From sequence record DRR723986_9652: 51,250 bases of DNA. One strand, written 5' to 3'. The notes under the pieces are model-generated. The model did no database searches and was not told where the DNA came from. It was given only the letters and a program-made list of their open reading frames with translations. The translations under genes and the position numbers were made by a program. Below are positions 23,933 through 49,716 of this stretch, piece by piece (the stretch's first letter is position 1; every line of letters begins with the position of its first letter).

Positions 23933-23978
23933 ATCAAACGTTTGTTTGAATTATTGACCGTTTACCGAAACCTGTCAA
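23933..23978 (-). promoter_or_regulatory. Sigma70 promoter with PsrA-type operator 3
   Basis: Minus strand TTGACA-N17-AATAAT followed by TTCAAACAAACGTTTGAT (23933-23950). Confidence 0.75.
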
Positions 23979-24034
23979 ATCAACATGTAACAATCAGGAT
24001 AAAAAGCGGATTGCTGTGCTATCAAGTTACAAAA

Positions 24035-24766
24035 CTAAAGGGCACTACAGGGCAAGCGGTCAAGCTCGGAGGATAAATCAAGCCTGGAAATTAACTTTAA
24101 TCGTCCTGCCCGTGAAAAAAGAGTCTCTTTCGGAGAGGCAGAGAACCCGGAGGGCAACGCAAGCGATAGGAAATTGGGCGTCTCTGTTAATTCAATGACA
24201 TGCACTTGGCGACCCAACCCACCCTGCAATCGCATCGACACAGTTGTTGAATTCTCATGCAAGGCAATTGAATTGACTACAAGACTAGATGAAGGTTTCA
24301 GTGCGCGCTGGCAATTCTGAATAAAGTCAGAACTCAAGAGTGGTCCAACCAGTCCTTCTTGATCGAATCCATCAACAAAAATCCAATCAAAAGTGCGGTT
24401 ACAGGCTTTTATGTACTCATCTCCACAGCCACACACAACGGCCAGCCTCGGATGAGTCTTCGGAAAATAGAAATGGGACACCGCCGTGTCAATCACCTCC
24501 GGGCAAATTTCAACCACAGTGACATGCCAGCTTGGAAAGTTTCGAAGAATAAACCGGGGAACCACGCCGGCACCAAGGCCAATAAGCAATATATTGCGAG
24601 CGCCAGAGAAGCAATCATCCAGAAGCAAGGTGCTCAAGGCGGCCCTCAAATAAGGAACTGCCGGAACATGTGGCGCTTCGAGACAAATATGCCCTTGCAC
24701 CACCCCTGTGGAACGGGAGCACAAGTATCTAAGTCCCTCGTAATCGACAACTTCGAAAGCCCCCAT
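24035..24766 (-). CDS. Spermidine synthase-like class I SAM-dependent transferase
   Basis: ILLIGLGAG; TVVEICPEVI; FDWIFVDGFD; 23 nt downstream of the zorB-like stop. Confidence 0.8.
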   Translation of the reverse strand: MGAFEVVDYEGLRYLCSRSTGVVQGHICLEAPHVPAVPYLRAALSTLLLDDCFSGARNILLIGLGAGVVPRFILRNFPSWHVTVVEICPEVIDTAVSHFYFPKTHPRLAVVCGCGDEYIKACNRTFDWIFVDGFDQEGLVGPLLSSDFIQNCQRALKPSSSLVVNSIALHENSTTVSMRLQGGLGRQVHVIELTETPNFLSLALPSGFSASPKETLFSRAGRLKLISRLDLSSELDRLPCSAL

Positions 24767-24789
24767 TTAAACTCCCGAGTCAAACCGCA

Positions 24790-25551
24790 CTAAATTCTGC
24801 ATCGGTCTGCGGGATCGTCCTGAAATTTTCCCATATAGCTTGCAGCATCTTCGGGGCGCTCATCAACGCCGTAAAACACCAACTTCAACTCGACACGTCG
24901 GCTTTCATCTTTCGTGCCTTTCATATCATTGAAAGCAACACCGCCAGCGAGGAACAATCGCTTTACCTGCACCCGTTGAAAAGGTGTCAACGCCACATTG
25001 AACTCTGGTACGCCTCCCAACAAAAGGCACATCAGATATTCTGATCGTCGAAGACTCAGATTCAAGTTGTACAAATAAGAACCGTCGGTATCAGTAAATC
25101 CCTCAATGATGACTTGCTTTAACCAACGCTTTCCCATGGGCGTTTCGGCAGTATCCAGAATCAGGGGAACCAAATCAGCCAGCATTTCAGAGGTAAACTC
25201 GCTTGGGCGATACTGGTCGGTATCGTATCTCCCAGCCTCACCAAAATTGATGCGGTTCAGTCTGCAATCAACATTCAGTTCGGAACGCCCAGACTCCTTT
25301 GAGCGTTGCGCAAGGTATTCACACACATCTTCAGTCGCGGCAACCCGCTGATCTTCAAGTTCAACCCTTTCATCAACTTCAGAGCTCTTTTCAAGAATAT
25401 CCTCGGTCTTTTTGACAATCGCGCTTAAAGCAACAACCATCACAACCAGGAAAAGAATCATTAAAGCAGTCATCAAATCGGCGTAAGAAATCCAGAAAGG
25501 CCTCTCACCCTCCTCACGCAAACTGTCAGTGTCGGTTCCGCTTAATCTCAT
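24790..25551 (-). CDS. zorB: ZorB-like MotB/OmpA-family protein
   Basis: PFWISYADLMTALM transmembrane helix with conserved Asp; IEGFTDTDGSYLYNLNLSLRRS; SRRVELKL. Confidence 0.75.
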   Translation of the reverse strand: MRLSGTDTDSLREEGERPFWISYADLMTALMILFLVVMVVALSAIVKKTEDILEKSSEVDERVELEDQRVAATEDVCEYLAQRSKESGRSELNVDCRLNRINFGEAGRYDTDQYRPSEFTSEMLADLVPLILDTAETPMGKRWLKQVIIEGFTDTDGSYLYNLNLSLRRSEYLMCLLLGGVPEFNVALTPFQRVQVKRLFLAGGVAFNDMKGTKDESRRVELKLVFYGVDERPEDAASYMGKFQDDPADRCRI

Positions 25552-26576
25552 GACTGCTCCTGACGACTGACCGCAACATGATTCGCAGACCCAGATCCAT
25601 TGCTCGCTCGCACAATTTTGCTCGCAATGTCGGCATTACTCACCTTTGTAGAATTAATCCTGCTTTCAATTTTCCGGGTCATTTCCTCCACTGGCTCCCT
25701 GAGGTGTCGGATCAAGGTTTGCTCAAGATGCGCATTGGACTTTCTGGTAACGTCAGTCATGGCCTCAAACATCGCTGTACGAATCAACTCTGCAAATCTT
25801 TCTTGCGACAGCTTGGACTCATTGGCAACCAAAGCAAGAGACTCCGTAATCGCATTCCTGAATCCGTCCGCTTGATTCTCAAAACCTCTTGTCTGGTGGG
25901 CGATTGCTGCCAGGTACTCTTGCTCAACTCCGCTGTCAAACAATGAATCAACCACTGAGTTAAGTTCGTCCAGCGCACTTACGCATTTGCGATACTGGAG
26001 CTTTTCCATGTGCGTAATGACCATGGCCACTGTGATCGCAAGTGCAGATGCATAAAATGCGTCCCGCACCCCGGATAAAAGCAAATTCACACTTTGCGCC
26101 ATTGTGTCTGGCGAACTGGAATCAAAGTTGCTCAAACCAAACAACAAACCAGAGAAGGTTCCAATAATCCCCACCCCAGTCAAGATACCGGGAAGGTGTT
26201 TGAAGTAATGAGCCCTCAACGGTCCCTCAATCACTGCTGAAATACTGAAGTAAGCTCGGGCCGGCACCGTCAAACGCGCCCGCTTTTCAATTTTCCCACC
26301 CGAATCGAGATGCTGGACGTGCAGTGTTTTGGAGAACTCCGCCCATAACCTGTCCAGTCCCGACTCCCGAAACACACGACTTGCTCCAATCTTGCGAAGA
26401 TCTGCGTCACCCTCCTTCATGGACGCCAGCGTGCCTGATATTCGTCTCAATGTTCTATCCAGGCCTTGAGACGGTTTGAAGTAGTCAATGTAAAAAGTGT
26501 AAGAAAAGTAGAGCAGGAAAATGACAACCAATGCTGGCGGAACCAGTTGAAGAAAGTTGGTGTAAGTTGTTTCCAC
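25548..26576 (-). CDS. zorA: ZorA-like MotA/ExbB-family membrane protein with short tail
   Basis: GTG start with AGGGG RBS; TM1, then LWAEFSKTLH...YFS...FKHLPGILTGVGIIGTFSGL...AFYASALAITVAMVIT..EK; helical tail; ATGA overlap with the zorB-like gene. Confidence 0.72.
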   Translation of the reverse strand: METTYTNFLQLVPPALVVIFLLYFSYTFYIDYFKPSQGLDRTLRRISGTLASMKEGDADLRKIGASRVFRESGLDRLWAEFSKTLHVQHLDSGGKIEKRARLTVPARAYFSISAVIEGPLRAHYFKHLPGILTGVGIIGTFSGLLFGLSNFDSSSPDTMAQSVNLLLSGVRDAFYASALAITVAMVITHMEKLQYRKCVSALDELNSVVDSLFDSGVEQEYLAAIAHQTRGFENQADGFRNAITESLALVANESKLSQERFAELIRTAMFEAMTDVTRKSNAHLEQTLIRHLREPVEEMTRKIESRINSTKVSNADIASKIVRASNGSGSANHVAVSRQEQS

Positions 26577-26625
26577 TGGTGTACCCCTAATCCTATTGAA
26601 GAAAAATTTGATCACTTCCAGTGCT

Positions 26626-26654
26626 TGAGTACAGCCCGAGAGTCTCATAGTTCC
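26626..26654 (-). promoter_or_regulatory. Degenerate hrp-box-like promoter for the zorAB-like operon
   Basis: GGAACT-N16-GTACTCA, 49 nt upstream of the GTG. Confidence 0.55.
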
Positions 26655-26686
26655 AGAATCTTGTGGGTACAGCAGAAAAACCTGGA

Positions 26687-26715
26687 GGAACCAAAGTAAA
26701 TCCGGACTACACATA
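26687..26715 (+). promoter_or_regulatory. hrp-box-like promoter for the methyltransferase
   Basis: GGAACC-N16-ACACATA, 44 nt upstream of the ATG; same -35 and -10 as the sctV box. Confidence 0.75.
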
Positions 26716-26759
26716 CCTCCTGTTAGTGAATCATTCTTAACCAAAACAGGACTAGTCAA

Positions 26760-28274
26760 ATGAGTAACTCTTGGAGTCACGGATACTATGCAGATGAAGG
26801 CTACGAATATGGATATCACACCGAAACATCCCCGTCTTATCTCCAATGGATGTGCACCCTTCAGGGAATAGATGCGCCCAAAGACAACTTCACCTATCTG
26901 GATCTGGGTTGTGGACAGGGATTAAGTTTGATCTTTCATGCGGCACTTCATCCTGACAGTCAGTTTATCGGCGTTGACTTCATGCCAAGGCACATTGCAC
27001 ATGCCAGATCCCTCGCCAAACGTCTGGCCCTGCGCAACATCACCTTCATCGAAGCCGACTTCCTTGATCTGGCAAAATGGCCCGACAAGATTGGCGAAGT
27101 TGATTATGCAGTGGCACATGGAATCAGCACCTGGGTTTCAAAAGAAGTGCGAAAAGGAATGTGGAGCCTGGTTTCAAAAGTTCTCAAACCCGGCGGCATC
27201 GTCTACAACAGTTACAACACCTACCCGGGCTGGCATTCTGCCTCGCCGTTTCAACATCTGGTCATTCAACTGAACAACCACATGCGAGGCAAAGCAGCCA
27301 TCGACCTCGCAATCAGAAAAATGAGCGCATTAAAAGACGCCAATGCCGTGTTGTTTGAAATGCTGCCTTCCCTTGACATGAGAATAGATGGCATGTCGCG
27401 CTCGGATCCAGCCTATCTTGTTCAGGAGTACAACAACACCGCATGGCAGCCGCTGTATGTTGCGGAAATACTCCAGGAAATCAGCGAATATAAGCTGGAT
27501 TACTTTGGTACCGCCAACGTGGTTCAACTGTTCGACGCCTCTTACCCTCCCTCTCTACTTGAGGTGATCAACCAGGAATCCAGTTTGCACATGCGGGAGA
27601 CCATTCGGGACTTCGCCATCGGCCAGTCATTCAGACGCGACCTTTATGCAAAAGGGTCATTGGAATTGGGCAAGGCTTTGCAAATCAACCGATTAGGGGA
27701 GCAAGCCTTGATCAGCACCCAAACTGAACTGATTGACAATGAGAACTTGGTTGAAATGGTGTATGAAAACCTGACCGTCACATTCGATAAAGCAACGCTG
27801 CAGGGAGTGATTGATGCCTTTGGTGAAAAGGGTGCAACTGTGAATGATGTACAAAAAGTGTTGCCCCAATTCAGCGTTCGGGAAGTTGCAGAAATCGCAA
27901 CCTATTTGATTCATAATGGCAAGCTCGGTATCAGGACCGGGTATTGCGTGGACAAGTTAAAGAAAATAAATCATGAACTGGCGAACGCTCATCTGGATGG
28001 AGCTCCCTACAACTACTTGGCATTTGGGAAAACCAATCGGGTAATTCGCCTGAGAAATGCAGACATGATGTTGCTTTCACATCACTTACAAGGTGTGCAA
28101 AATCAAGATCTGTACAAAAAATTGCAAGAAACAATGACGATTCTAAACAAACGATTTTGCATAGAGGGTCGTGAAATTACAAACCCGCAAGAGTCGCTGG
28201 AGCAAGCCAAGCTGCATGCCAATCACTTTCTGGATGTTGTTCTTCCCGCACTTGTTTCGCAAGAAGTAATCTGA
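26760..28274 (+). CDS. Class I SAM methyltransferase with methyltransferase regulatory domain
   Basis: YLDLGCGQG; FIGVDF; AHGISTWV; LKPGGIVYNSYNTYPGW; YLVQEY...WQPLY; QSFRRDLY. Confidence 0.88.
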   Translation: MSNSWSHGYYADEGYEYGYHTETSPSYLQWMCTLQGIDAPKDNFTYLDLGCGQGLSLIFHAALHPDSQFIGVDFMPRHIAHARSLAKRLALRNITFIEADFLDLAKWPDKIGEVDYAVAHGISTWVSKEVRKGMWSLVSKVLKPGGIVYNSYNTYPGWHSASPFQHLVIQLNNHMRGKAAIDLAIRKMSALKDANAVLFEMLPSLDMRIDGMSRSDPAYLVQEYNNTAWQPLYVAEILQEISEYKLDYFGTANVVQLFDASYPPSLLEVINQESSLHMRETIRDFAIGQSFRRDLYAKGSLELGKALQINRLGEQALISTQTELIDNENLVEMVYENLTVTFDKATLQGVIDAFGEKGATVNDVQKVLPQFSVREVAEIATYLIHNGKLGIRTGYCVDKLKKINHELANAHLDGAPYNYLAFGKTNRVIRLRNADMMLLSHHLQGVQNQDLYKKLQETMTILNKRFCIEGREITNPQESLEQAKLHANHFLDVVLPALVSQEVI

Positions 28275-28340
28275 AAAATTCCGCACCAACCAACAGCGAT
28301 TTGTAAAAGCAAGGTTGGTGAGGTCAATGGTCTGCATAAC

Positions 28341-28374
28341 GAAAAACCCGCGTTAGGTTTAACGCGGGTTTTTC
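28341..28374. terminator. Bidirectional intrinsic terminator
   Basis: GAAAAACCCGCGTTA-GGTT-TAACGCGGGTTTTTC. Confidence 0.92.
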
Positions 28375-28401
28375 TAAAAATATGTCCTGACCATTTAGAT
28401 C

Positions 28402-29112
28402 TTACCGGTCGTACAAATTTTTCAACAAGGCGGGCATGGTGGCTTCAAAAAAGTTGGAACGCTTTTTGTTGCTTGACTCAAGCTGAGCAGAAAGCACATC
28501 TTGTTTAAACTCGCTGGGTACAATTTTGTCTTCAAGTTGTGCCATAAACTGCAACACTTTGTTTGCGTCCTGCTTGGAAATCGAGATCGATTTCTGTCCA
28601 TTGTTGTATGCATCAAGCATGCGCTGAACAATCTCGCCACCAGTCACATCACTCAAAACGAAGCCTGCTTTTTCAAGCAAAGCCTTCGTTTTCTCAAACA
28701 CTTTTACTTCGATAGGGCCGAGTTTGTAGTCACCCTTTTCAGAGCTGAAACCCTGCATGGCAGCCTTTATTGAATTTACCCCACGCTCGAAATCGCTAAA
28801 CCATTTCATGACCGCATCAGCGTAATCCACATCGTAATCAAACAGTATGCCGCCGATCTCAGCCATCAAATGTGCATATCTGGCAGAGTCGCCAGCGATG
28901 ATTGCTGCATAGGCCGAATCAATAAGACCTGGTTGAGATTCGAAAACTGGCAAACCCTCCGGCCCCTGCTCCTCAATCAACTCGGGATCAAACGGAGGCT
29001 TTGGAGGTGGATCCGAGCGAGGAGGGGGATCAGGACGCGGAGGCCTGCCTCCCCTGCCTGGACCACCATACAACCCTGACATGTAAACATATCGACGATG
29101 TAAAGCAAACAT
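28402..29112 (-). CDS. Proline-rich candidate T3SS effector
   Basis: Start reassigned to MFALH (GGAGG RBS); RPPRPDPPPRSDPPPKPPFDP; last gene of the translocon operon. Confidence 0.55.
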   Translation of the reverse strand: MFALHRRYVYMSGLYGGPGRGGRPPRPDPPPRSDPPPKPPFDPELIEEQGPEGLPVFESQPGLIDSAYAAIIAGDSARYAHLMAEIGGILFDYDVDYADAVMKWFSDFERGVNSIKAAMQGFSSEKGDYKLGPIEVKVFEKTKALLEKAGFVLSDVTGGEIVQRMLDAYNNGQKSISISKQDANKVLQFMAQLEDKIVPSEFKQDVLSAQLESSNKKRSNFFEATMPALLKNLYDR

Positions 29113-29125
29113 AATCGTCCTCCGA

Positions 29126-29719
29126 TTAAGTACGGGCGCCAGAGAGTGTGGCGCTGGCCGAATCATTGACATGACTGATTTCAGTCGTGAGTGCCTGGTA
29201 ATTCTGCTCGAAGAGATCCGCAAAGGCCTGAAACTCAGCAGCATCAACGCCCAAAGCCGCCTCTCCAACCTCACCAGCAGATTTGAACACCTGCAATATG
29301 CCACCGCCGACCACGCCTGACATGTTTTCCATGACAGGCTCAGCCTTTCCTCGACCAGCCATGGAGAAACCCGCGACAAACCCCAAACCTGCGCCGGCAG
29401 CTGTCATGGTGAGTGCCACGATGGCACCATTCAATTTTTCATTGGCAGACTTGATCTTGAATTCGAAAGCACTTGTCTGAGTGTCAATACGGTGTAACTC
29501 AAGTTTCAACCCCTTTTCTCTTGCACTTTCAAAAAGAGCAATGAACATTGCGTTTTCGGGACTGGAGAGAAAACCAATCGCCTTTGCATCCCGATAGGAA
29601 ATAACTCCAGCATCAATATACTTTTGCACCGTAGGAGGCACTGGCCCATTAGGTATGTCGTCCTCTTCATCAAGCGTAATCAGGCCAGAACCTGAGCTTT
29701 CACCAACACTGGAAACCAT
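29126..29719 (-). CDS. Candidate minor translocator (SctB-like)
   Basis: Ser/Gly-rich N-terminus; single Gly/Ala hydrophobic helix IVALTMTAAGAGLGFVAGF; directly follows the SctE-like gene. Confidence 0.55.
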   Translation of the reverse strand: MVSSVGESSGSGLITLDEEDDIPNGPVPPTVQKYIDAGVISYRDAKAIGFLSSPENAMFIALFESAREKGLKLELHRIDTQTSAFEFKIKSANEKLNGAIVALTMTAAGAGLGFVAGFSMAGRGKAEPVMENMSGVVGGGILQVFKSAGEVGEAALGVDAAEFQAFADLFEQNYQALTTEISHVNDSASATLSGART

Positions 29720-29732
29720 AATATTTCCTCCT

Positions 29733-30713
29733 TTAAACCAAGTTCATTTGTTCGATTTGCTTCACGTAATCGCTGATCAATTTCTTGAATGAGATCGCAT
29801 CTTCTCTGGAGAGATCCAGACCTTGAGTAACCAAATCAATAAATGCCATCAATTTGTCAATTGAAACTTGCGATGTTGACACCTGGTACTTGAGCACCCC
29901 GTTGGTCAACTCACCTGCATTCATACCAGCCAATGAAGTCATGTCCGCGGCAAAAACAATCTTGCGCATGTTCTCGGTGACAAAGTTTTTGAGAGCCAAC
30001 AAGAAATCATCAATGGCCTTTGCAGACACATCCACAGCTTTGACAACCGCACCCGACACGCCAGCACCTTGACCCGCAGCCACGTTTGCAGCGCTGGTTC
30101 CGCGGAGCATCTGTACAAATTTGCTACCGACATCTGCCATTACTCGACCCAATGCTGCCGCACCCATGGCAGTGAGCACCATGATTGCAACCACAACCAC
30201 CGCCATGATGATTGCCGCTGCCCACACAGGAAGGCCCATATCTTTCAGAACATTAAATATCTCTTTGAATGCCTGACCAACCAGGGACTCGTTGCCTGTC
30301 GCATTGGCAATCATGGGCTCCAGAAACATCGCAACCGCAATAACCAACATGGCCACAGCAAAGGGAGTTGGATTAATCAACACCATGATGGCAGACAGGA
30401 TGAGGGCAAAAACACCCAAAATCTTCAGAAATATTTTCAAGCCCTTCATCCGCTCTTGCTTTTTCAGCTGCTCCAGATTCTTCTCCAGAACCTCCATCAT
30501 GTAGGCGGCTTTGTTTTTGTCGCCGTCTGAAAGGACTTCAAAAAAGTTTTTCATGGCCTCCCTGTTGTTCTCCATCATCCAGAGCATGATGCGAAGAATT
30601 TTGGCTGCATACTCCTCGGAGCCAGCCTCGCCTGTTGCTCCCACTTCATCAGTGGAATCAATTGAACCATCAAACTCCAAACCTGAAGAACCAACCCCAG
30701 CAGTTGCTGTCAT
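29733..30713 (-). CDS. sctE: Candidate major hydrophobic translocator (SctE; YopB/SseC-like)
   Basis: Coiled coil EKNLEQLKKQERMK followed by long hydrophobic segments (KILGVFALILSAIMVL...; AAAIIMAVVVVAIMVL). Confidence 0.65.
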   Translation of the reverse strand: MTATAGVGSSGLEFDGSIDSTDEVGATGEAGSEEYAAKILRIMLWMMENNREAMKNFFEVLSDGDKNKAAYMMEVLEKNLEQLKKQERMKGLKIFLKILGVFALILSAIMVLINPTPFAVAMLVIAVAMFLEPMIANATGNESLVGQAFKEIFNVLKDMGLPVWAAAIIMAVVVVAIMVLTAMGAAALGRVMADVGSKFVQMLRGTSAANVAAGQGAGVSGAVVKAVDVSAKAIDDFLLALKNFVTENMRKIVFAADMTSLAGMNAGELTNGVLKYQVSTSQVSIDKLMAFIDLVTQGLDLSREDAISFKKLISDYVKQIEQMNLV

Positions 30714-30723
30714 TCGAATCTCC

Positions 30724-31833
30724 TTAGCCGCGCACGGCGTCTGTACTCACCTGAGCAAGCATTGAAATCAATGTTTGGGCAATGCGGTTGATTACGCCAA
30801 GCCGGTCGCGTGCCTCAGAGGCCATAGATTCAAAACGCGACTTGTTGGAATCGTCTTTGTTCGCTGCAGCCAGCGTGGCCATGTCGGTGTAAAACACGTC
30901 GTCAGCCTTGGCCACATCGGCAAAGTAATCGGTTCCAATTCTTACCCTGTCCATCGGACTAACATCACCGTCCAACGCAGTGGCTGCTTTGGTTGCAATT
31001 TCCGAACGGGCGTTAAAGTAACCAAGCAGCGGATCTTCAGCAATTTTTATGTCAATTTCTTCGGCACTTAACCCTTGTTCGGCATAAAGTTCCCGAAGTT
31101 CCGCCTCGCGTCGTGTAGCAAGTTCTTTGAACAAATCGGCTTCAGCTCTCAACGTTGTTGGGTCCAAAGCCTTCAAATCAGCAAAGTTGATTTTTTCCAG
31201 GTCTTCCATATTCATCGTGCCAAGGCTGCCCTCGGAATACTTCAGCTTGTCGGCAACATCCGTCAGATAGCTGACCCTATTCAAATGCATGGTCCGCTCG
31301 CTACTACCCTCCGCGTACGAATCTGCCATTTGCTGTTCATGGGCCGCAGTAAACCTCAGTCTGCTTTCCAAACTCAGATTAGGGTTTGCAGTTAAAGCTG
31401 CATGCTTCTGCGCCAGTGGGGAGCCTTCCGTAGTAACCCCAAACTCCTTGAGATCGCTTAGCAACTCGCCCAAAGCATTTGGATCTTTCTGTGAGGCACT
31501 CATGCACACATCCAAACGTGCTTGCAGATCATTGATCTGAGCACTTACTTTCTTTAATTGTGCCGGCGTGATTGCGCCAACCTGTCCCAGAAACTGAACC
31601 TTCAACTCGAGCAAGCGAAGCTGTTGGCCCGGGGAAATATTTCCGGAATTTTGAAGTGACTCCAAGCGTTCAATTTCATCAAGCGTTGCTTGCTGTGAAT
31701 CCGACCAACCTTGAGCAGGTGGGGTTTGAGTGGCGTTATCGAAAGAAGTGTCGATATCTTCTGCCAAGGGATTGTCCGAATCAGCACCCAAAGGACTGGG
31801 CTGAGAATCCGGGGGTGTATTCGGTATTGCCAT
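30724..31833 (-). CDS. Hydrophilic secreted protein, candidate tip/filament (SctA-like)
   Basis: Pro/Ser/Asp-rich N-terminus, helical acidic body, amphipathic C-terminus; position before the translocators. Confidence 0.45.
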   Translation of the reverse strand: MAIPNTPPDSQPSPLGADSDNPLAEDIDTSFDNATQTPPAQGWSDSQQATLDEIERLESLQNSGNISPGQQLRLLELKVQFLGQVGAITPAQLKKVSAQINDLQARLDVCMSASQKDPNALGELLSDLKEFGVTTEGSPLAQKHAALTANPNLSLESRLRFTAAHEQQMADSYAEGSSERTMHLNRVSYLTDVADKLKYSEGSLGTMNMEDLEKINFADLKALDPTTLRAEADLFKELATRREAELRELYAEQGLSAEEIDIKIAEDPLLGYFNARSEIATKAATALDGDVSPMDRVRIGTDYFADVAKADDVFYTDMATLAAANKDDSNKSRFESMASEARDRLGVINRIAQTLISMLAQVSTDAVRG

Positions 31834-31857
31834 GATTTATTCTCACAAAAATCGAAT

Positions 31858-31886
31858 AAAAAAACGCCCCGCAGTGATTCGGGGCG
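31858..31886 (-). terminator. Intrinsic terminator/attenuator after the pilin-like gene
   Basis: CGCCCCG-N8-CGGGGCG followed by T7 on the minus strand. Confidence 0.85.
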
Positions 31887-31898
31887 CTGCGAGTGTAA

Positions 31899-32117
31899 TT
31901 ACTTGTTGCCAGCCTGCTGCGCGCCTTGATTAAAGCTTGAGTTGGTTGCTGCAACGGAACCCACGGTGATCACAGTCTCCGTCATAATGCCTTGTGCCTT
32001 GAATGCGCCGGCCAGCGTACCTTTCTTTGCAGATTTCACGGCCGCCTTGGCCCCGCCAGCCAAAACCGCGTCTGCTGTTTTACCAAAGCCTGCACTTGAT
32101 GCAATGATGTAAGCCAT
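31899..32117 (-). CDS. Small Ala/Gly-rich protein, candidate Hrp-pilin-like subunit
   Basis: 72 aa, GGAG RBS, followed by a hairpin; assignment by composition and context only. Confidence 0.45.
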   Translation of the reverse strand: MAYIIASSAGFGKTADAVLAGGAKAAVKSAKKGTLAGAFKAQGIMTETVITVGSVAATNSSFNQGAQQAGNK

Positions 32118-32153
32118 AACTTTCTCCAGAAAATAATTAAAAATGACCTTGGA

Positions 32154-32351
32154 TCAACTACCTTGAGTGGATTGAAACGCCTGATTCACTTGCTCGTCGG
32201 TCAGCACCTTCATGCCGATAAACTGAGCCTGAAACAATCGATCTTTCGCCCAGTCGGGCAGGTCATCCCAACTCTCAATTCTTCCACCTTCCCCCCCATC
32301 GGCAGTAACTGCTGCAGGGGTTGCTCCCACGCCTTCAGCTGGCATTTTCAC
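32154..32351 (-). CDS. Small T3SS-associated hypothetical protein
   Basis: 65 aa, GGGAGG upstream, tightly spaced in the operon. Confidence 0.55.
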   Translation of the reverse strand: MKMPAEGVGATPAAVTADGGEGGRIESWDDLPDWAKDRLFQAQFIGMKVLTDEQVNQAFQSTQGS

Positions 32352-32357
32352 CTCCCT

Positions 32358-32576
32358 TCACTTGTTGACAATACTCTTCAAAGGCTCAGAAACATCCTTC
32401 ACCAAATTGGCTGCCTGGTTCCACAACACAGACATGACCGTGGTCTCCGCCTGCAACATGAAAACGTCTTGCATATTTCCACCAAAGTTAGGATCCCCGA
32501 TACGCTCGATGATCCGCTGCATTCTTCCATCAGCCAGTTTGGCCACTGCTTGCGAGGGTCCGTAGATAGTCGACAT
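32358..32576 (-). CDS. sctF: Needle subunit-like protein (SctF/EscF/YscF family)
   Basis: 72 aa; DP...LQAE...SVLWNQAANLVKDVSEPLKSIVNK resembles the needle C-terminal pattern. Confidence 0.65.
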   Translation of the reverse strand: MSTIYGPSQAVAKLADGRMQRIIERIGDPNFGGNMQDVFMLQAETTVMSVLWNQAANLVKDVSEPLKSIVNK

Positions 32577-32581
32577 AATTG

Positions 32582-32926
32582 TTATTGCTGCTTGTAAATT
32601 TGTTCAAAAGACTCGGAGAGTTTTCCACCCACCTTCCCACTCAACTGAAGTTCAACAGAATGCATGGCACTCACATGAGACGCTTCAATCAACTTAACCA
32701 GTTCATCACTCCGATCAAACTTACGCATTTCTTTTGTAACGTCCACTCGGCTTTGTTGGTGAGCGTCTTCTGCCTTTTGAACCAGGGTTGTCAGTACATT
32801 ACTTTGTGATGTACTTTCCGACTCCACCAACTTCTGAAAAATTTTTCCATTCTCAAGGCTGAAACTATTGGGGCCCTTGCCTCCAGTTCCAGATACCAGT
32901 CCTGTCATTGCGCTCAATTCTTGCAT
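32582..32926 (-). CDS. sctI: Inner rod-like protein (SctI/YscI/EscI family)
   Basis: 114 aa; C-terminal SVELQLSGKVGGKLSESFEQIYKQQ. Confidence 0.65.
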   Translation of the reverse strand: MQELSAMTGLVSGTGGKGPNSFSLENGKIFQKLVESESTSQSNVLTTLVQKAEDAHQQSRVDVTKEMRKFDRSDELVKLIEASHVSAMHSVELQLSGKVGGKLSESFEQIYKQQ

Positions 32927-33426
32927 GTGATTTGCACCTCAAAATTTTTGCCGAACTGCTGACCCAATCTACTTGCCACGAGCTTCTGGAGAATCGAGAT
33001 ATGCTGAACTGGCAGCGGTTGCTCTACAACCACATGCAACAACACAACATTTGAACTCAGTTTTACTTCGACTTTGGCAGATCCAAAATCATCGGACTTG
33101 ATGTAAAACTGCTCTTCCAACTCCACATTTTTTTTATTGCCTTCCTGTTTATTAAGTGAAGAATTGGAGTTCAAAGTTCCCTCAAAATCAGTACTTTGAG
33201 AAACTGCCTGTTCATCCAACAACATTGAGAAAAATGTATTCTCAAGATCATGTTTCTCAACCATCGATTTCTGTCCTGTGCCTGCTTTTGAGATTCCATT
33301 TTTCGAGAACTCAGGCTTAAGCATCCGCTCACTCCACTCGATTCCCTGTTCTCTTCGTGTTTGTCTGTTTCGATTGAGATCTGGTGATGCTGAAGCAGGT
33401 GAGGTTTCACTAAACACTTTAATCAT
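32914..33426 (-). CDS. Candidate length-control protein (SctP/HrpP-like)
   Basis: Disordered N-terminus plus C-terminal FGSAKVEVKL...LLHVVVE...LGQQFGKNFEVQI (T3S4-like). Confidence 0.5.
   Translation of the reverse strand: MIKVFSETSPASASPDLNRNRQTRREQGIEWSERMLKPEFSKNGISKAGTGQKSMVEKHDLENTFFSMLLDEQAVSQSTDFEGTLNSNSSLNKQEGNKKNVELEEQFYIKSDDFGSAKVEVKLSSNVVLLHVVVEQPLPVQHISILQKLVASRLGQQFGKNFEVQITCKN
33153..33180 (-). promoter_or_regulatory. Internal hrp-box-like promoter for rod/needle/pilin genes
   Basis: GGAACT-N15-TCACTTA, 226 nt upstream of the sctI-like start; same -35/-10 as the 39287 box. Confidence 0.55.
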
Positions 33427-33772
33427 CCAGATTCCCCAATTTAAGTTCTTGTAAAAACCGGCTCAGAAACTCGGTGTGCATTGACGTATTGACCAACTCC
33501 CAACCCGAGTCAACAGTCACCCGGCATCCACAGCATGGCTCTAGAAACGCCTCCAGTTGATAACCGCGGCCTAGCGGCTTCTGGCGATTAATTCTCTCGA
33601 TGCCTCGAACGAAACTGGTGCGATCCAATGTCAAAGATTCCGAGACCATGAACAGTTGTTGACCGCTTACGATTCCATTCACTCTTTCAGTACCCAACAT
33701 CCAGGAGTCGATCTGGGCAAGTTCGACAATGTCATCAGTACCAATCTCCGGATCATTTTTTTGAAGCATCAC
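33419..33772 (-). CDS. T3SS-associated small protein (possible chaperone)
   Basis: 117 aa, overlaps both neighbours; function by position only. Confidence 0.45.
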   Translation of the reverse strand: MMLQKNDPEIGTDDIVELAQIDSWMLGTERVNGIVSGQQLFMVSESLTLDRTSFVRGIERINRQKPLGRGYQLEAFLEPCCGCRVTVDSGWELVNTSMHTEFLSRFLQELKLGNLDD

Positions 33773-34968
33773 TTCACCTCTGCATCAGCTGCCTTAGTGT
33801 GATAGCTGCTTTTAAGTGCAGAATTAATTTGCAGCACCAATTGGGAAAATGTTTTCTCGTTCTGTCTACCCAGAAAAATCATTCCTCGCTGAATAAATCC
33901 TCGAAGATTCATGCAATAAATTTGGGTTCCTTTTACCACCGGACTCATCGACTCAAACAGCCTGCTCAGCTTGTTGGCCGATCCCACACCGGTAGATCCG
34001 GATAAACCAACCAGTTCCAGCAGTACCTTTGCCGATTCGGGTACTTTCTCAACACCGGCTTTGAGGCAAACGGTTTTGATCCGATCCAGGTCAGCAACGC
34101 TGGTGCTGATCAGATCAATCTGTCGAATTCGTGACTGAATGAAGTGCTGACGTTGGGCAGTTAGCTCCAGCGGATACTGCGTGCGCTCCCGATCTGACAA
34201 CAGCAACCACTGCTCCCTGAGAACCTTCAGTTTCACCAAAAGACGATTTGGATCGCTGGCAATGAGGCGCGAGAGAAACCCGTAGATCTCCAGAGAGCCC
34301 AGGTCTTCATTTTTAGTCAGCATTCTGTTTGCAGCCATCAACTGCCGATGGCCAATTTTCAATGGCCCCGATGCCATGGTGGTTACTGCCATCGTGATGA
34401 GAAAATCATCTAACGATTGATTGTGTGCGGCAAGAATCTGATCTCGTTTTGTCTTGATCTGCGAAAGGGTTTCAGGGCCAATCGCGTAGCGCTCCGCATC
34501 AAGCAAAGTGATTTGCAGCAGCAGAAATTTAAGGGCTGTTTTTTGATCGGGCGATACCGTACCCAGTTCATCAATAATACTGGTGGTGTGCTGCTCAGTA
34601 GCAGCAATCAAGGAATGGATACAAAGCTCAAGAAACTTTTCGTCACCCGTGGTCAACGACTTGAATTGATCCCTGAACTTTCTGGTTAATTTTTCATCAT
34701 CAAGTTCACGTCCTTTCAGGGAGAAAGACGCGGCCTGTTCTGCACTCGATATCTGCAATTCAGCAACCGGACGAATTGCACTGGCATGCAAGGCTGCGCC
34801 AGATGGCATCGATTCATTCAGCTTTGCCTGGTGTTTAACCGACTTGGACTGGATTGCCTGCTTTAACAGATGCCGTAGAGCCCCGCTTCGCTGCGCCTCG
34901 GCGGCATCGACCAGTGGATTGGATTGCCCCTGAGGCAAAGGCCTGATGTGACCAATGTCTACGCTCAT
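33769..34968 (-). CDS. Candidate gatekeeper (SctW/HrpJ-like)
   Basis: 399-aa helical Leu-rich protein with low-complexity N-terminus; size fits and no other SctW is seen; weak motif support. Confidence 0.4.
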   Translation of the reverse strand: MSVDIGHIRPLPQGQSNPLVDAAEAQRSGALRHLLKQAIQSKSVKHQAKLNESMPSGAALHASAIRPVAELQISSAEQAASFSLKGRELDDEKLTRKFRDQFKSLTTGDEKFLELCIHSLIAATEQHTTSIIDELGTVSPDQKTALKFLLLQITLLDAERYAIGPETLSQIKTKRDQILAAHNQSLDDFLITMAVTTMASGPLKIGHRQLMAANRMLTKNEDLGSLEIYGFLSRLIASDPNRLLVKLKVLREQWLLLSDRERTQYPLELTAQRQHFIQSRIRQIDLISTSVADLDRIKTVCLKAGVEKVPESAKVLLELVGLSGSTGVGSANKLSRLFESMSPVVKGTQIYCMNLRGFIQRGMIFLGRQNEKTFSQLVLQINSALKSSYHTKAADAEVK

Positions 34969-34969
34969 T

Positions 34970-36703
34970 TTACTGCCTCAAGGAAATGGACTGTTGTGGC
35001 AAGCGGCCTAGGTTCAGCGATGGCGTCATTTTGAGATTCTCATCATTCTCGAGTCGGAAATTTTCCTTAATCGTGTCGATGGCGCGTTTTGTTGAACTTC
35101 TCCCATCGGGTGGTAGCTCGATGACGCGAGGCGTGATCAGGAATAACCTCACCATGGTTTGCTTTTGCTTTTCGGTGTAAGAAAATGCCTTTCCAATAAA
35201 GGGCAGGTCACCAAGCAAAGGCACCTTGTAGTTGTTGGAATTTTCACTATCCCGGTTGTAGCCACCAATTAACAAGGCTTTCTCAACATTGACCACGGCC
35301 TGGGTACTCAACACTGTGTTTCTGACAGTAGGTGAACCCTCGCCTGCCTGAGTCAAACTTCCGTCTTGAATGTCTACCCGCAGGAATATTTCCTCTCCGC
35401 TGTCTTTCCTGACAAGCCTCGGGGTGACTTGCAGAAGGCTGCCTGCCGTGACCGGCACAATTTGCGCAACACGCTCGCCAGTCACTCTCAAATACTGAGT
35501 TTCCGACAGATCAATAAATGCAGGGATGTTGTCTTGAGTGACGATGTTTGGCCTTGCCAACACCTTGGCATTTTGATCTGCGATCAAAGCGCGAATTCTT
35601 GCGAGAAAACGCCCAGGGTCTACCACCGAACTCGCACCGCTGTAGAGCGATACGGTTCCAAGCTCAATGTTCTCGCCCGGAAAATCATACTGAACGCCAC
35701 CAGCGCGGAGTCCAAACTCCATACCGAGTTCATCCAGCGTCGCTTTATCAACCTCGACCAGCATGGCTTCTACTTCCACCATGGCGATAGGCGCATCGAG
35801 TTGCTCGATTAGTTTTCGATAGTACTCATATCGAGACCTGGTATCACGTATGACAATTGAGTTTGTTCTTGGATCTGCCGTCACGGAGAACGGGCTTATT
35901 TTTGAATCCTCTTTTTGCGCTTTGGAGGGAATATCAGTACGCCTGGTGGATGTCTGATTCTCAACAAAATCCTGTTGACCGATAGACCCCGCTGGCTTTA
36001 ATGGATCCAGGTGGGTTGTTCGATTGACTGGTGTAGGTACTGTGGTTCCAACCGAAGAATGATTCTTTAAGCCCAGCAGTTCCAGCAACACTGTAAGCGC
36101 GCCTTTTGATACAAAAGTTCGATCCCTCAAGTTGATCTCTCTGTCCTCAACTGAAGCATGCTTTAGCGTAAAAACCATCAGATCAGGCTCATCCTGCCCG
36201 GACTCTGGTCGCTCTCGGCCAAAGGCGGATTCAAGTAGTTTCAGATAAGCCAATGGGCCTGATGCGATCAGTTCATCGTGTTTCTCGTTGTACACCACAC
36301 TGAATTGTGGGTAATGAAGGCCTGAGTTTTTGAGAAGATCTTCCCAATCTGTCAAAGGGGGAAAATCACCGACATAGATTTTTCTGGTTTTCCAGTCCCT
36401 GGCCCGATACAGATACACCGAGGAACCATTTTGAAACCAGTTCATCTGATAGGCTGCTGTGAAATAACCCATCACATCTTCCACAGAACTCACTTTGAAT
36501 CGACCGCTAACCGGCGTGGAAGGAAGATCCGAAGTAATCAGTTCTCTCCCAAAGAACCCCAACAAATACGATATGACGCGTGACGGCCGCTCATCCTTGG
36601 CGATATAAATAACAGGTTCTGTTTTTTGGGCTGTGTTCGCATACGCTGGCAATGTGAACACAGCCATCAAGAAAGCGATCAATATTGCTCTAAGTTGAAT
36701 CAT
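34970..36703 (-). CDS. sctC: T3SS secretin
   Basis: Signal peptide; FTLKHASVEDR; ADPRTNSIVIRD; KVPLLGDLPFIG; RLFLITPRVI. Confidence 0.95.
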   Translation of the reverse strand: MIQLRAILIAFLMAVFTLPAYANTAQKTEPVIYIAKDERPSRVISYLLGFFGRELITSDLPSTPVSGRFKVSSVEDVMGYFTAAYQMNWFQNGSSVYLYRARDWKTRKIYVGDFPPLTDWEDLLKNSGLHYPQFSVVYNEKHDELIASGPLAYLKLLESAFGRERPESGQDEPDLMVFTLKHASVEDREINLRDRTFVSKGALTVLLELLGLKNHSSVGTTVPTPVNRTTHLDPLKPAGSIGQQDFVENQTSTRRTDIPSKAQKEDSKISPFSVTADPRTNSIVIRDTRSRYEYYRKLIEQLDAPIAMVEVEAMLVEVDKATLDELGMEFGLRAGGVQYDFPGENIELGTVSLYSGASSVVDPGRFLARIRALIADQNAKVLARPNIVTQDNIPAFIDLSETQYLRVTGERVAQIVPVTAGSLLQVTPRLVRKDSGEEIFLRVDIQDGSLTQAGEGSPTVRNTVLSTQAVVNVEKALLIGGYNRDSENSNNYKVPLLGDLPFIGKAFSYTEKQKQTMVRLFLITPRVIELPPDGRSSTKRAIDTIKENFRLENDENLKMTPSLNLGRLPQQSISLRQ

Positions 36704-37356
36704 GACTGACCTTGCTTTAAAGTTGCTTGGGCATCGAAATAGCCTTTAAGCGATAGAAGTTCTTGCCCCAAAATTGCAAGCCAGTTCTCGACTGAAACAT
36801 CGATATACGACTCACCGGCAGAGTCAACAACCAGCCTATCTGGTGCAACGGTGGAGTCTGGAATAACCTGCCACTTGCTCAATTTCAGTAAAGAAGAAAA
36901 CTTCTCTGCAATCAAGGTCTCTACCAGCTCAACCTGCCCGGGATGGACTCGAAGGGTAAAACTGGATCGTGACTGGATTTTCCCGAGAAGTAATTCAATC
37001 AAAGCGTTGAGCCTGGTTGTCTCGGGAGCCTCTTTGATGAATTGCGCAATGGCCATTCGACTCACCTCCATACATGCCATGGCTGAATTACTCTCAAGCT
37101 CCATGCGTCTTTTCTCGAATAGGTTTAAGAACTGTTGAAGATCATTCTGGCCACGTTTTGCGACGTCTTCTATGACCTCGGTTCTCTGGGTTTCAATCTC
37201 CAATTTCGCGCGATCCCTCATCTCCTGGATATGACGATGCGCTGTTGCGACCAGCGTTTGATAATCAGAAACCTGATCCATCAGCGAACCCTTGATCCAG
37301 TTTCCAGTGAACTGAAAATCAACAGGAACATCGATCTCGCGAAGTAAGCCAAGCAT
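36700..37356 (-). CDS. sctL: T3SS stator (HrpE/YscL-like)
   Basis: Coiled coil followed by TLRVHPGQ...VIPDSTVAPDRLVV; position. Confidence 0.75.
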   Translation of the reverse strand: MLGLLREIDVPVDFQFTGNWIKGSLMDQVSDYQTLVATAHRHIQEMRDRAKLEIETQRTEVIEDVAKRGQNDLQQFLNLFEKRRMELESNSAMACMEVSRMAIAQFIKEAPETTRLNALIELLLGKIQSRSSFTLRVHPGQVELVETLIAEKFSSLLKLSKWQVIPDSTVAPDRLVVDSAGESYIDVSVENWLAILGQELLSLKGYFDAQATLKQGQS

Positions 37357-37361
37357 GGTGT

Positions 37362-38054
37362 CTATGCCTCATTCAAATCAAGCAAGGGAATCTCAAACTG
37401 CTGAACAAAATTTCCGATAATTTTCTCAATCGCGGGATCAATCCAGGATTCAAACTCCTGAAGAAGATCATCTCTGGACAACAACGGAACTTCATGAATA
37501 TAGGCAGCGACCTGATCTGAAACACCAAGCAACCAGCGCTGATAGAAAACCGGAGAAGATTTCCGAAGATACAAACCGAGAACAATCAATATGGCCTGAT
37601 TGATTTTCACAGCCTCACTTTGTACTCGCTGCAACGAATTCACAATATTGATTCGAATGGTTTCCAGTCCAGGAGACAGCGTTCGGAAAGTAGAAATCAA
37701 GTCACGAATAACTTCGGTATTGTGCACACCATGCAACTGCTCCCAGTCACTGGGTCTTGCTGTCAAGATAGAGTCATCCAGAACTAGGCAGGCGAACTGT
37801 GAAAGCTCACTTTCCATCTCAGCGTGATCCACCAAACCCAGGATCAAACGACTGGGTGCAGCAGTCATTTGGCTATCTGGCAAGCAAGAGAGATTCATTA
37901 ATCGTCGAATCTTGATGATTACCGAAGGCTCATGCCTGTCTGCCCACGCGATACCTTGGGCCTTCAGCCATTTGATTTTGTCTGGATGCATGCCTTCACA
38001 TGGGTTGGTCCACCAACGCCACCACTGTGCAGCGATGTTTTCGTCATCTATCAT
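37362..38054 (-). CDS. sctK: HrpD/SctK-like protein
   Basis: WWRWWTNPCEGMHPD N-terminal motif; between sctJ and sctL; start MIDDE with GAGG. Confidence 0.6.
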   Translation of the reverse strand: MIDDENIAAQWWRWWTNPCEGMHPDKIKWLKAQGIAWADRHEPSVIIKIRRLMNLSCLPDSQMTAAPSRLILGLVDHAEMESELSQFACLVLDDSILTARPSDWEQLHGVHNTEVIRDLISTFRTLSPGLETIRINIVNSLQRVQSEAVKINQAILIVLGLYLRKSSPVFYQRWLLGVSDQVAAYIHEVPLLSRDDLLQEFESWIDPAIEKIIGNFVQQFEIPLLDLNEA

Positions 38055-38838
38055 CGACAGAACCTCGCTTGAAGACATGCAAAAACTTTGGCCAGTTTTT
38101 CTGATCTGCCACAGAGAGGTAAACGGCGCCCATCGACAAAAGCCACAAGCCGATGAGTGTGTAGATCACCATGAGAAAAGCCATGCGGTCCTCTGGCATC
38201 AAGGCCATCGGGCCATACCAGATCAGGGGCAATCCCTTTTCAAGGTACTCATTGGAGGGAATTGCGACAATTGAAATTCGTTCGGCATTTCCACCACCAA
38301 CACCCGGAATACTGCTGCTGACCAGCTCACGGATTTTGGAAATGTATGCCTGAAACGGCGAGTCTGTTTTGTGCTTTACAAAAACAGCCACCGACGATGG
38401 GATCAACTGCTCACCGGGCGCCGGGCGCTCTGGCAGGACCAAGTGGACTCTGGCGGAAATCACGCCATCAATGGTGAGAAGCGTTTGCTCCAACTCTTGT
38501 GAAAGGGCAAACAGGTAGCGTGCCTTCTCCTCGAGTGGGGAACTAATCATGCTGTCCTTCTTGAATATCTCACCAATGGTGCCTCGTTTGCTTTTTGGCA
38601 AACCTCGAGCTTTCAGGACCAGAAGCGCGTCACCGGACATACGCTGGGGAACACTGATTGAGATACCGTTCTTGCCTTGTTCTTTCTGGGCAGGAATACC
38701 CGAGTCAAGAAGGACCGCGTAGATTTCGTTTGCATCTGCCTCGTTGAGATCCTGGAACAGGGCAATTCGAGACCCGCATGCCTGCAAGGTAACAGCCGCC
38801 ATAATCATCACAAGGAGTTTAATCAGATTGAGCCTCAT
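38044..38838 (-). CDS. sctJ: T3SS inner membrane ring lipoprotein
   Basis: LQAC lipobox; ISSPLEEKARY; IDGVISARVH; C-terminal TM. Confidence 0.96.
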   Translation of the reverse strand: MRLNLIKLLVMIMAAVTLQACGSRIALFQDLNEADANEIYAVLLDSGIPAQKEQGKNGISISVPQRMSGDALLVLKARGLPKSKRGTIGEIFKKDSMISSPLEEKARYLFALSQELEQTLLTIDGVISARVHLVLPERPAPGEQLIPSSVAVFVKHKTDSPFQAYISKIRELVSSSIPGVGGGNAERISIVAIPSNEYLEKGLPLIWYGPMALMPEDRMAFLMVIYTLIGLWLLSMGAVYLSVADQKNWPKFLHVFKRGSVDDR

Positions 38839-39257
38839 GGGCGCCCCCTGGTCAACGATCCCAACTCTTCGCCAAATTCTGTTGCTCGCTGAGATGCGTA
38901 ATTGGTTTGCATGAAATAGGTGTCCCCATCAACTTCGAGTCTCAATATGGACTCGGTGAGATTGAACAGATGGTCACCGTTGGACTGAATTTCCTGGCTG
39001 TTTAGCTTGGCTGCAACAGCCATGCCTTCAATGATCTGATCCAGTCCGTGAACATCATTCAGAAGTGCTGCACCAATTTCCCCTCGTTCAGGTCCAGGCG
39101 TTTTTGTTGTATTCATTCCGGGTTGAGTTGGGCTTGAAGCAACGCGCATGCCTTCCAGCAATCGAGCAAAGTGGGATTGATCTGCGGTACTTGCGACCGA
39201 CGCCCTTGATGATGAAAGAACAAACGGCAGTTGCGAGGGTATGTGAAGATCATTCAT
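38835..39257 (-). CDS. HrpB/HrpB2-like protein (second rod-like gene)
   Basis: 140 aa, ADQSHFARLL motif; immediately upstream of sctJ, as hrpB is in Hrp clusters. Confidence 0.5.
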   Translation of the reverse strand: MNDLHIPSQLPFVLSSSRASVASTADQSHFARLLEGMRVASSPTQPGMNTTKTPGPERGEIGAALLNDVHGLDQIIEGMAVAAKLNSQEIQSNGDHLFNLTESILRLEVDGDTYFMQTNYASQRATEFGEELGSLTRGRP

Positions 39258-39286
39258 CTTGTTCTCAAATAGAAGTACTCGTGTTC

Positions 39287-39315
39287 TAAGTGAGAAAAAA
39301 GAGTCTGTTAGTTCC
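39287..39315 (-). promoter_or_regulatory. hrp-box-like promoter of the sctJ operon
   Basis: GGAACT-N16-TCACTTA, 29 nt upstream of the ATG. Confidence 0.8.
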
Positions 39316-41407: not shown

Positions 41408-41410
41408 TTG

Positions 41411-43696: not shown

Positions 43697-43700
43697 CAAA

Positions 43701-46048: not shown

Positions 46049-46050
46049 CT

Positions 46051-48186: not shown

Positions 48187-48210
48187 CGATTAGATTACTG
48201 CTGACTACTG

Positions 48211-48238
48211 TATGTGTTGCTCCCAAGAAGATGGTTCC
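48211..48238 (-). promoter_or_regulatory. hrp-box-like promoter of the sctV operon
   Basis: GGAACC-N15-ACACATA, 24 nt upstream of the start. Confidence 0.8.
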
Positions 48239-49712: not shown

Positions 49713-49716
49713 GGTG

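Follow-up and report, generated by a model that had tools for sequence, protein, structure and literature searches.

A stretch of 51,250 nucleotides from sequence record DRR723986_9652, here called the window, carries a pair of zorA-like (shortened) and zorB-like genes, relatives of the motor genes of the anti-phage system Zorya, within an island of type III secretion system (T3SS) genes. The pair is rather likely to encode a ZorAB-derived, peptidoglycan-binding, ion-driven motor of the inner membrane, of the 5:2 type, that now acts as a dedicated accessory of the Limnobacter injectisome. Short ZorAB is conserved as a passenger of the T3SS island in this freshwater/marine genus and is probably co-regulated with it, which points to a defence motor having been taken over for use by a secretion apparatus. 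The features at the centre of this reading are the following.

25548..26576, minus strand: zorA-like gene of 342 amino acids (aa), with a GTG start at 26576 and its stop at 25548, assigned with PADLOC, PDB, an AlphaFold2 model and Foldseek.
24790..25551, minus strand: zorB-like gene of 253 aa, full length, overlapping zorA by 4 nucleotides and encoding a transmembrane helix with the conserved Asp and a peptidoglycan-binding domain.
26626..26654, minus strand: hrp-box-like element GGAACT-N16-GTACTCA, 49 nucleotides upstream of the zorA GTG.
26687..26715, plus strand: hrp-box-like GGAACC-N16-ACACATA, which forms a back-to-back pair with the zorA box, 44 nucleotides upstream of a divergent methyltransferase gene.
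23957..49716: variable T3SS island of ~25.7 kb, holding zorA, zorB and a third gene, flanked on both sides by core genes with 98% identity to the nearest genome.
33769..48186, minus strand: T3SS structural genes sctC, sctL, sctJ, sctU, sctT, sctR, sctQ, sctN, sctD and sctV, assigned with Pfam and the NCBIfam models SctV, SctN and SctC.

An earlier note on this DNA had recognized ZorA- and ZorB-type motifs in the pair, and both are present in the proteins. The zorA-like protein contains the quoted ZorA motif (YFKHLPGILTGVGIIGTFSGL...DAFYASALAITVAMVITHMEK) and matches the PADLOC profile ZorA1 (PDLC00598, E 1.8e-71) over profile positions 13-298 of 663, so that the match is confined to the first ~300 of the ~660-730 positions of ZorA. 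Its closest solved structure is E. coli ZorA (PDB 8qyd, E 1.9e-43, query 14-287 against chain 20-298). An AlphaFold2 model, built with 16 family members in the alignment and with a mean predicted local distance difference test score of 77, has the ZorA transmembrane and membrane-proximal fold, followed by a single tail helix (217-307) and a low-confidence C-terminus; when this model is searched with Foldseek, ZorA chains rank first, headed by 8qyd_A (E 7.5e-17). The protein is therefore read as the ZorA transmembrane and membrane-proximal domain followed by a tail helix of ~90 residues, against a tail of ~500 residues that projects ~70 nm in E. coli according to the available text of PMC11946911. 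The tail as a whole is put at about 90-125 residues, which on the E. coli scale would correspond to about 12-17 nm.

The short length is a property of the family. The figure of about 342 aa in the earlier note finds support in the GTG start at 26576, since 15 homologs (334-358 aa) begin in the same alignment column. Public records of the same protein cluster give lengths of 342, 388, 398, 403 or 423 aa, all labelled ‘hypothetical protein’, and the longer starts in these annotations are unlikely because the homologs share the start column of the 342-aa form. In the longer public readings the gene (25548-26846) extends across the two promoter elements and into the beginning of the divergent gene. 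Length is held steady at 334-358 aa although identity within the family is only 37-81%, and a C-terminal motif (E285, R290, P295 and K320) is invariant in 16 sequences.

The zorB-like protein contains FWISYADLM and IIEGFTDTDGSYLYNLNLSL, and it matches both PADLOC ZorB1 (E 3.5e-79) over its full length and the ZorB of PDB 8qyd (E 1.9e-59). The residues required for the E. coli ZorAB motor, as defined by Hu et al. in the available text of PMC11946911, are kept. In an alignment with E. coli ZorB, the zorB-like protein retains Asp26, the peptidoglycan-binding residues Tyr151, Asn152, Leu155 and Arg159, and the cysteines (E. coli numbering); Asp26 of ZorB and Thr147, Ser184 and Pro136 of ZorA are aligned and identical in the window proteins and in six further members of the short family. 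By homology with the E. coli motor, the pair may form a ZorA5:ZorB2 complex. Both proteins score under the NCBIfam equivalog cut-offs (182 bits against 750 for ZorA1, 284 bits against 400 for ZorB1), and by PADLOC, NCBIfam, PDB and Foldseek alike they group with type I ZorAB and not with MotAB or ExbBD, the grouping that would have refuted the earlier note. In a quick IQ-TREE analysis of 76 ZorB rows, midpoint-rooted for drawing only, 17 T3SS-linked and 11 canonical betaproteobacterial ZorBs form one clade inside type I diversity, with a Shimodaira-Hasegawa-like approximate likelihood ratio test (SH-aLRT) value of 99. The T3SS-linked rows split into two groups (15 and 2), and a single origin for them is compatible with the tree. 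Loss of Glu89 from the Ca2+ site of ZorA, which is Lys or Arg in all short forms, was tried as a marker of the T3SS-linked family and dropped because canonical relatives also vary there (E/D/Q/K).

Comparison with the nearest genome compared (G001) delimits the island. Synteny runs at 98% identity over 15500-23956 and resumes at ~49717, which places the trio of zorA, zorB and third gene in the variable T3SS island. At the same site G001 holds only ~6 kb, with divergent sctU/T/S/N-like pieces that are 32-55% identical to those of the window and flanking core genes that are 90-99% identical, and no ZorA relative is found in G001. As the contents of the two genomes differ to this extent, the chromosomal site hosts very different T3SS islands in close relatives. 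The GC content of the trio (47-49%) is that of the island (47-50%, about 48%), and the core stands at 53-54%. Contigs from three metatranscriptome runs of one study are ~99% identical over zorAB, the third gene, the methyltransferase and T3SS genes; they are compatible with transcription, their depth being flat and DNA carry-over possible, and they show neither co-regulation nor a transcription start. The best PDB relative of the window SctV is a ‘low calcium response’ protein (E 2.4e-132), and the PDB offers no HrcV structure.

The linkage of zorAB to T3SS genes, on which the proposal in the earlier note depends, holds for most carriers in the genus. Short ZorA has a match in 19 of 26 Limnobacter genomes, and the window proteins were mapped onto 20 loci fetched from these 19 carriers. 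In 14 of the carriers, zorA-zorB is found immediately upstream of sctJ in the same orientation; three of the 14 (G006, G013 and G009) have the unbroken order sctV-D-N-..-Q-R-..-U-zorA-zorB-..-sctJ-..-L-C, and in G007 and G026 an sctV-U block and a zorA-zorB-sctJ-sctC block form convergent parts of one island. One carrier (G014) resembles the window in having the methyltransferase divergent from zorAB, and the remaining four (G004, G012, G022 and G025) have a truncated zorA next to broken T3SS clusters, the only setting in which truncated copies occur. The zorA-zorB-sctJ synteny extends across island types whose SctV is only 55-60% identical to that of the window. SctV of the window type (at least 55% identity) is intact in 15 genomes and partial in two, and all 17 carry zorA. 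The seven genomes without short zorA have only FlhA, or a SctV that is 39-48% identical and sited elsewhere; three genomes of the genus have a different SctV type and no short ZorA. G025 has a deletion derivative (L045, 9453-11177) in which the 5′ third of sctN is joined directly to the 3′ half of zorA.

Both genes are under purifying selection like that on sctJ and sctC. Over six to eight genome pairs, the proportion of nonsynonymous differences (pN) is 0.05-0.23 for zorA and 0.08-0.30 for zorB, and that of synonymous differences (pS) is 0.70-0.89, ranges that are those of sctJ and sctC. pN and pS are given here in place of a dN/dS ratio for most pairs because synonymous sites are saturated.

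The promoter motif offers a further tie to the island. The earlier note had read GGAACT-N16-GTACTCA 49 nucleotides upstream of zorA, back to back with a second hrp box, and both elements are there. A relaxed motif, GGAACY-N15/16-nnACnnA, occurs seven times in the window, where ~1.4 are expected by chance (200 mononucleotide shuffles), and six of the seven lie in the T3SS island. These six precede zorA, the methyltransferase gene, the needle-region genes, the open reading frame (ORF) before sctJ, sctV and the ORF at 48281-49585. Besides the two boxes given above, the island elements are as follows.

33153..33180, minus strand: hrp-box-like GGAACT-N15-TCACTTA, upstream of small needle-region genes.
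39287..39315, minus strand: hrp-box-like element upstream of a 140-aa ORF and sctJ.
48211..48238, minus strand: hrp-box-like GGAACC-N15-ACACATA, upstream of sctV.
49648..49675, minus strand: canonical hrp box GGAACT-N15-CCACACA, 63 nucleotides upstream of ORF 48281-49585 and the most canonical in the window.

The box of zorA is conserved in its homologs, as the reading in the earlier note requires. In 16 of 17 loci the relaxed motif precedes the start of zorA by 33-76 nucleotides, where shuffles give an expectation of 0.05; the count omits L045 and L049 (5′-truncated zorA), L048 (start past the contig end) and L050 (canonical). The upstream regions of the 17 loci fall into at least eight groups without detectable similarity to each other. 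As a control, the canonical Zorya I loci with a long enough upstream region were scanned; none of these 64 has the motif, which 13 of 14 short loci do have. Over 80 kb each in G007, G026 and G006, 5 of 6, 4 of 4 and 6 of 6 hits, respectively, fall in or at the edge of the T3SS island, and the back-to-back pair of boxes can also be read in G014 (locus L031, region 589-2354). Most congeners have zorA-zorB immediately upstream of their equivalent of the 39287..39315 element, which comes just after zorB and before sctJ in G007, G026 and G006; for this reason zorAB is regarded as a unit of its own between two T3SS operons. From these motifs, zorAB would be made together with the T3SS and would depend on a sigma factor of the extracytoplasmic function (ECF) type. 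A candidate HrpS/HrpL-like cascade lies far from the T3SS island of G007 (L060, G007:C1:1452500-1459500), where an ECF sigma factor (223 aa), a sigma-54 activator (465 aa), a GGAACC-N15-CCACTCA element and a 143-aa chaperone-like ORF are accompanied by a second ECF sigma factor (203 aa) with GGAACC-N16-GCACTCA 187 nucleotides upstream. Another ECF sigma gene, about 25-35 kb away and followed by an anti-sigma-like gene, sits in core DNA near the island in five congeners (L054, G026, 7486-8744; by synteny ~6 kb past the left end of the window) and is probably unrelated to the T3SS.

The effectors that accompany a Zorya motor are missing. A tblastn search of the 51-kb window with the ZorC and ZorD of a congener found neither (best E 0.65), in agreement with the earlier note, which saw no such gene adjacent, and the loss of defence effectors that it suggested extends to the genus, in which 18 of the 19 carriers have neither ZorC nor ZorD. 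ZorC and a full ZorD each occur in one of the 26 genomes, both beside a long ZorA in G026; G009 has a partial ZorD helicase match on another contig. The complete type I Zorya of G026 (L050, G026:C1:3451000-3470999; ZorA of 833 aa, ZorB, ZorC and ZorD) is far from the T3SS, and the same genome additionally carries the short T3SS-linked pair (L038), which argues for different roles of the two systems. No conserved third gene accompanies the pair across the congener loci, and a PADLOC scan of the two genes adjoining zorAB in the window gave only a methyltransferase-type match (mad2).

Beyond the genus, the long and the short forms keep to separate settings. A family sample of 401 genomes contains 28 with a match, and short frames occur only in Limnobacter; the nine matching genomes outside the genus comprise eight with frames of 673-764 aa and one with a weak 423-aa match. 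A wider survey, with one genome per species for 185,579 species, yielded 295 ZorA relatives, of which the best 80 were analysed. Among these 80, 14 are short, all of the Limnobacter type; none of the 14 has ZorC or ZorD and 13 have T3SS genes nearby. The other 66 are long or broken-long, with ZorB in 61, ZorC downstream in 53 and T3SS genes in none, and the canonical relatives among the 80 have frames of 520-993 aa, save five that are shorter at contig ends or broken. Named members of the short ZorA family are all Limnobacter, among them L. parvus YS8-69, L. olei P1, Limnobacter sp. 130 and MED105.

The mechanism that we propose builds on what the pair has kept and lost. The motor core is complete, with the ZorA transmembrane and membrane-proximal domain, the ZorB Asp and the ZorB peptidoglycan-binding domain, and the tail is reduced to one helix of ~90 residues. 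With the ZorC and ZorD effectors gone, motor output would be directed to the secretion machine rather than to nucleases. Transcription of the zorAB bicistron would start from an ECF-type (hrp-box-like) promoter, the class that also serves the T3SS operons. Bound to peptidoglycan, the motor would stand next to the basal body and may turn proton flow, or deformation of the envelope, into a mechanical or conformational signal that would support T3SS assembly or activate secretion.

A more specific form of this proposal, possible but on balance doubtful, is that the Limnobacter injectisome has re-acquired a stator. Short ZorAB units anchored by ZorB would surround the basal body, where proton flow turns or actuates a part of the machine, or where envelope deformation at host contact triggers secretion. 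If true, nature would here provide a non-flagellar T3SS that is served by a rotary 5:2 motor, and a sensor from phage defence would have been put to new use as an accessory of secretion. The disputed report that the type III apparatus rotates in dependence on the proton-motive force (PMF), by Ohgita et al. (2013) as described in the available text of PMC3877841, would also become accessible to genetics.

Several observations weigh against an accessory role at the injectisome. The support for it is wholly computational and does not extend to physical contact with a T3SS protein. Because members of the genus are kin and the genes share one island, the co-occurrence counts do not represent independent events. 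In the window itself the pair is not beside sctJ but at the edge of the island, and ~7 kb separate it from the closest gene for a structural T3SS component. On one contig of a metagenome-assembled genome (G011; L039, 4473-10757), intact zorAB beside sctJ is abutted by sctV-sctD′ and most T3SS genes are gone, through either a real deletion or a mis-join. The short form is limited to one genus in the searched data, both in the 401 family genomes and among the best 80 of the 295 relatives; it is thus no general T3SS part, and it lacks the presence across taxa that marks a core T3SS component. ZorC and ZorD were sought in the source genome within the window only, and ZorE, ZorF and ZorG were not searched for anywhere.

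The regulatory evidence has weak points of its own. The window box of zorA reads GTAC where the hrp-box consensus has CCAC, which makes it weak alone, and its weight comes from its conservation in other genomes; one locus (L046, in G009) has no motif. Genome-wide counts of a stricter pattern, GGAACY-N15/16-YCACNNA, in two congeners (19 and 22) do not exceed those of its reversed control (26 and 39, respectively), so the motif alone does not define a regulon. No sigma factor gene was found inside the T3SS islands of five congener genomes with Pfam Sigma70_r2, and no hrpL-like gene in the island. Lastly, a locus of the L060 type is present in 25 of the 26 genomes of the genus, T3SS-less ones included.

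Among the possible roles, action on the machine is favoured over a purely regulatory sensor, the sensor over continued phage defence, and all of these far over decay. As a sensor of envelope or peptidoglycan state, which we consider unlikely, the pair would use its short tail to pass motor activation, at host contact or needle assembly, to a regulator such as an ECF sigma pathway, tuning T3SS transcription and not the machine. The ZorAB of Zorya has been proposed to sense envelope perturbation and to signal through the tail (available text of PMC11946911 and PMC12422006). The Limnobacter pair is preceded by a promoter of its own and can stand apart from the structural operons, as it does in the window, where it is displaced, and congeners keep the L060-type locus, in which two hrp-box-type motifs accompany a sigma-54 activator and two ECF sigma genes. 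Yet zorAB has a linked regulator gene in none of the loci, nothing ties the tail to any sigma or anti-sigma factor, and the usual site between two structural operons better fits a structural or accessory role.

Continued phage defence, by a module that has no effector or an unrecognized one and that rides the T3SS island and is induced with it, for example against needle-adsorbing phages, is quite improbable. Defence is the only function demonstrated for the ZorAB family, as far as the available text of PMC11946911 goes, and the T3SS-linked ZorBs nest within type I Zorya, as the joint clade in the ZorB tree attests. According to the same text, however, each of four truncations of the E. coli ZorA tail put an end to defence although the motor still assembled, removal of any Zorya gene likewise abolished defence, and long ZorA tails are reported in all Zorya subtypes. 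The near-complete absence of ZorC and ZorD from carriers, the lack of a conserved third gene, the occurrence of truncated zorA only beside broken T3SS clusters and the coexistence of a complete type I Zorya with the short pair in G026 speak against defence as well.

A decaying remnant or neutral hitch-hiker, left by a Zorya that landed in the island and then shed tail and effectors, would account for the missing parts and for the truncated copies in four genomes, but is very hard to reconcile with a constant length at 37-81% identity, with pN of 0.05-0.30 alongside saturated synonymous sites, as in sctJ and sctC, and with the conservation of catalytic and peptidoglycan-binding residues, C-terminal motif and promoter. 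That the pair is an ordinary flagellar stator (MotAB) or a Tol/Exb energizer that merely lies nearby is scarcely credible and is refuted at the level of sequence and fold: Pfam MotB_plug does match the zorB-like protein (E 9.6e-07, with a weak OmpA match) and the fold class is common to both, but the zorA-like protein has no Pfam match at all, MotA/ExbB included, the NCBIfam MotB models reach 17-20 bits against 284 for ZorB1, and Foldseek places ExbB, TolQ and PomA at E 1e-2 or worse (PomA at 0.13).

The accessory reading concerns zorA and zorB, and the genes on either side of the pair are of a different kind.

24035..24766, minus strand: gene of 243 aa with a spermidine-synthase-like S-adenosylmethionine (SAM) fold, 23 nucleotides after zorB, assigned with Pfam and NCBIfam.
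26760..28274, plus strand: SAM methyltransferase with a MethyTransf_Reg domain, divergent from zorA (Pfam PF13847, E 1.4e-16; PF10119, E 2.3e-16).

The earlier note had described the third gene as spermidine-synthase-like, and this description stands (Pfam Spermine_synth PF01564, E 1.9e-10; NCBIfam PRK04457, E 1.8e-35, 122 bits, under the cut-off of 304). Its place beside zorAB is another matter, since tblastn finds a match to it in none of the 20 congener loci, and by this comparison it is strain-specific cargo outside the conserved module. The divergent methyltransferase is island cargo with its own box; a homolog (46% identity) divergently adjoins zorA in G014. Relative to the homolog of 28402-29130, the cassette of methyltransferase and zorAB has opposite orientations in the window and in G014. 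Further along the minus strand, 28402-33772 is a run of ORFs without Pfam matches. They include one for a 326-aa protein that has hydrophobic segments and two for proteins of 72 aa, and probably represent translocator, needle and chaperone genes; congener islands also contain homologs of 32358-32576 and 32582-32926. The 434-aa ORF at 48281-49585 (minus strand) has no family match save a weak Pyr_redox_2 and is not at the equivalent spot in congeners; its product is a candidate secreted protein.

The interest of the pair lies in where it stands. In non-flagellar T3SSs the stator of the flagellum is regarded as lost. Abby and Rocha (available text of PMC3459982) count MotA and MotB among the flagellum-specific genes without a non-flagellar T3SS counterpart, and ZorAB is known, from the available text of PMC11946911, only as the sensor and motor of an anti-phage system in which the long tail is essential. 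The literature searched on Zorya, Limnobacter T3SSs and injectisome stators describes no ZorAB-T3SS link in its available text, as the earlier note, which knew of none, had said. Here a ZorAB derivative that is conserved and under selection, but has a fifth of the tail and is without nucleases, is found within an injectisome cluster and shares its promoter type. It offers a natural experiment on the action of the ZorAB motor core when the defence output is gone, an example of exchange between defence and secretion machinery, and a concrete candidate for PMF or envelope coupling at the injectisome.

Set beside known systems, the pair and its promoter each combine familiar and unfamiliar traits. 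Like hrp boxes of the HrpL type, the elements of the island have the same -35 GGAACY, a spacing of 15-16 and a -10 that resembles nnACnnA, and they precede T3SS operons and candidate effectors; unlike the consensus GGAACC-N15/16-CCACNNA, their -10 is degenerate (GTAC, ACAC, TCAC and CAAC). With the ZorAB of type I Zorya (E. coli, PDB 8QYD; available text of PMC11946911) the pair shares the MotA-like transmembrane core of ZorA, a whole ZorB with its conserved Asp and peptidoglycan-binding domain, the Thr/Ser ion-filter and Pro positions of ZorA, the cysteines, and the zorA-zorB order. It differs in a tail of ~90-125 residues in place of a long one, in having no ZorC or ZorD alongside, in scores below the equivalog cut-offs, in its place in a T3SS island behind an hrp-box-like promoter with no defence context, and in its confinement to one genus in the searched data.

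Flagellar MotAB and PomAB belong to the same 5:2 motor superfamily, have a B subunit with the Asp and an OmpA-like peptidoglycan-binding domain and, by analogy, share an association with type III export; unlike them, the window pair is much closer to ZorAB, and the injectisome has no FliG partner. Motors of the ExbBD/TolQR type are of other subfamilies, as their Foldseek values indicate. To our knowledge, none of GldLM/PorLM, ExbBD-TonB, TolQR and SiiAB has been linked to a T3SS. GldLM/PorLM of the type IX secretion system, ExbBD-TonB, TolQR, and SiiAB of the type I secretion system of Salmonella pathogenicity island 4 are nevertheless ion-driven inner-membrane motors encoded with the envelope-spanning transport machines they serve, and in being encoded with a transport machine short ZorAB resembles them.

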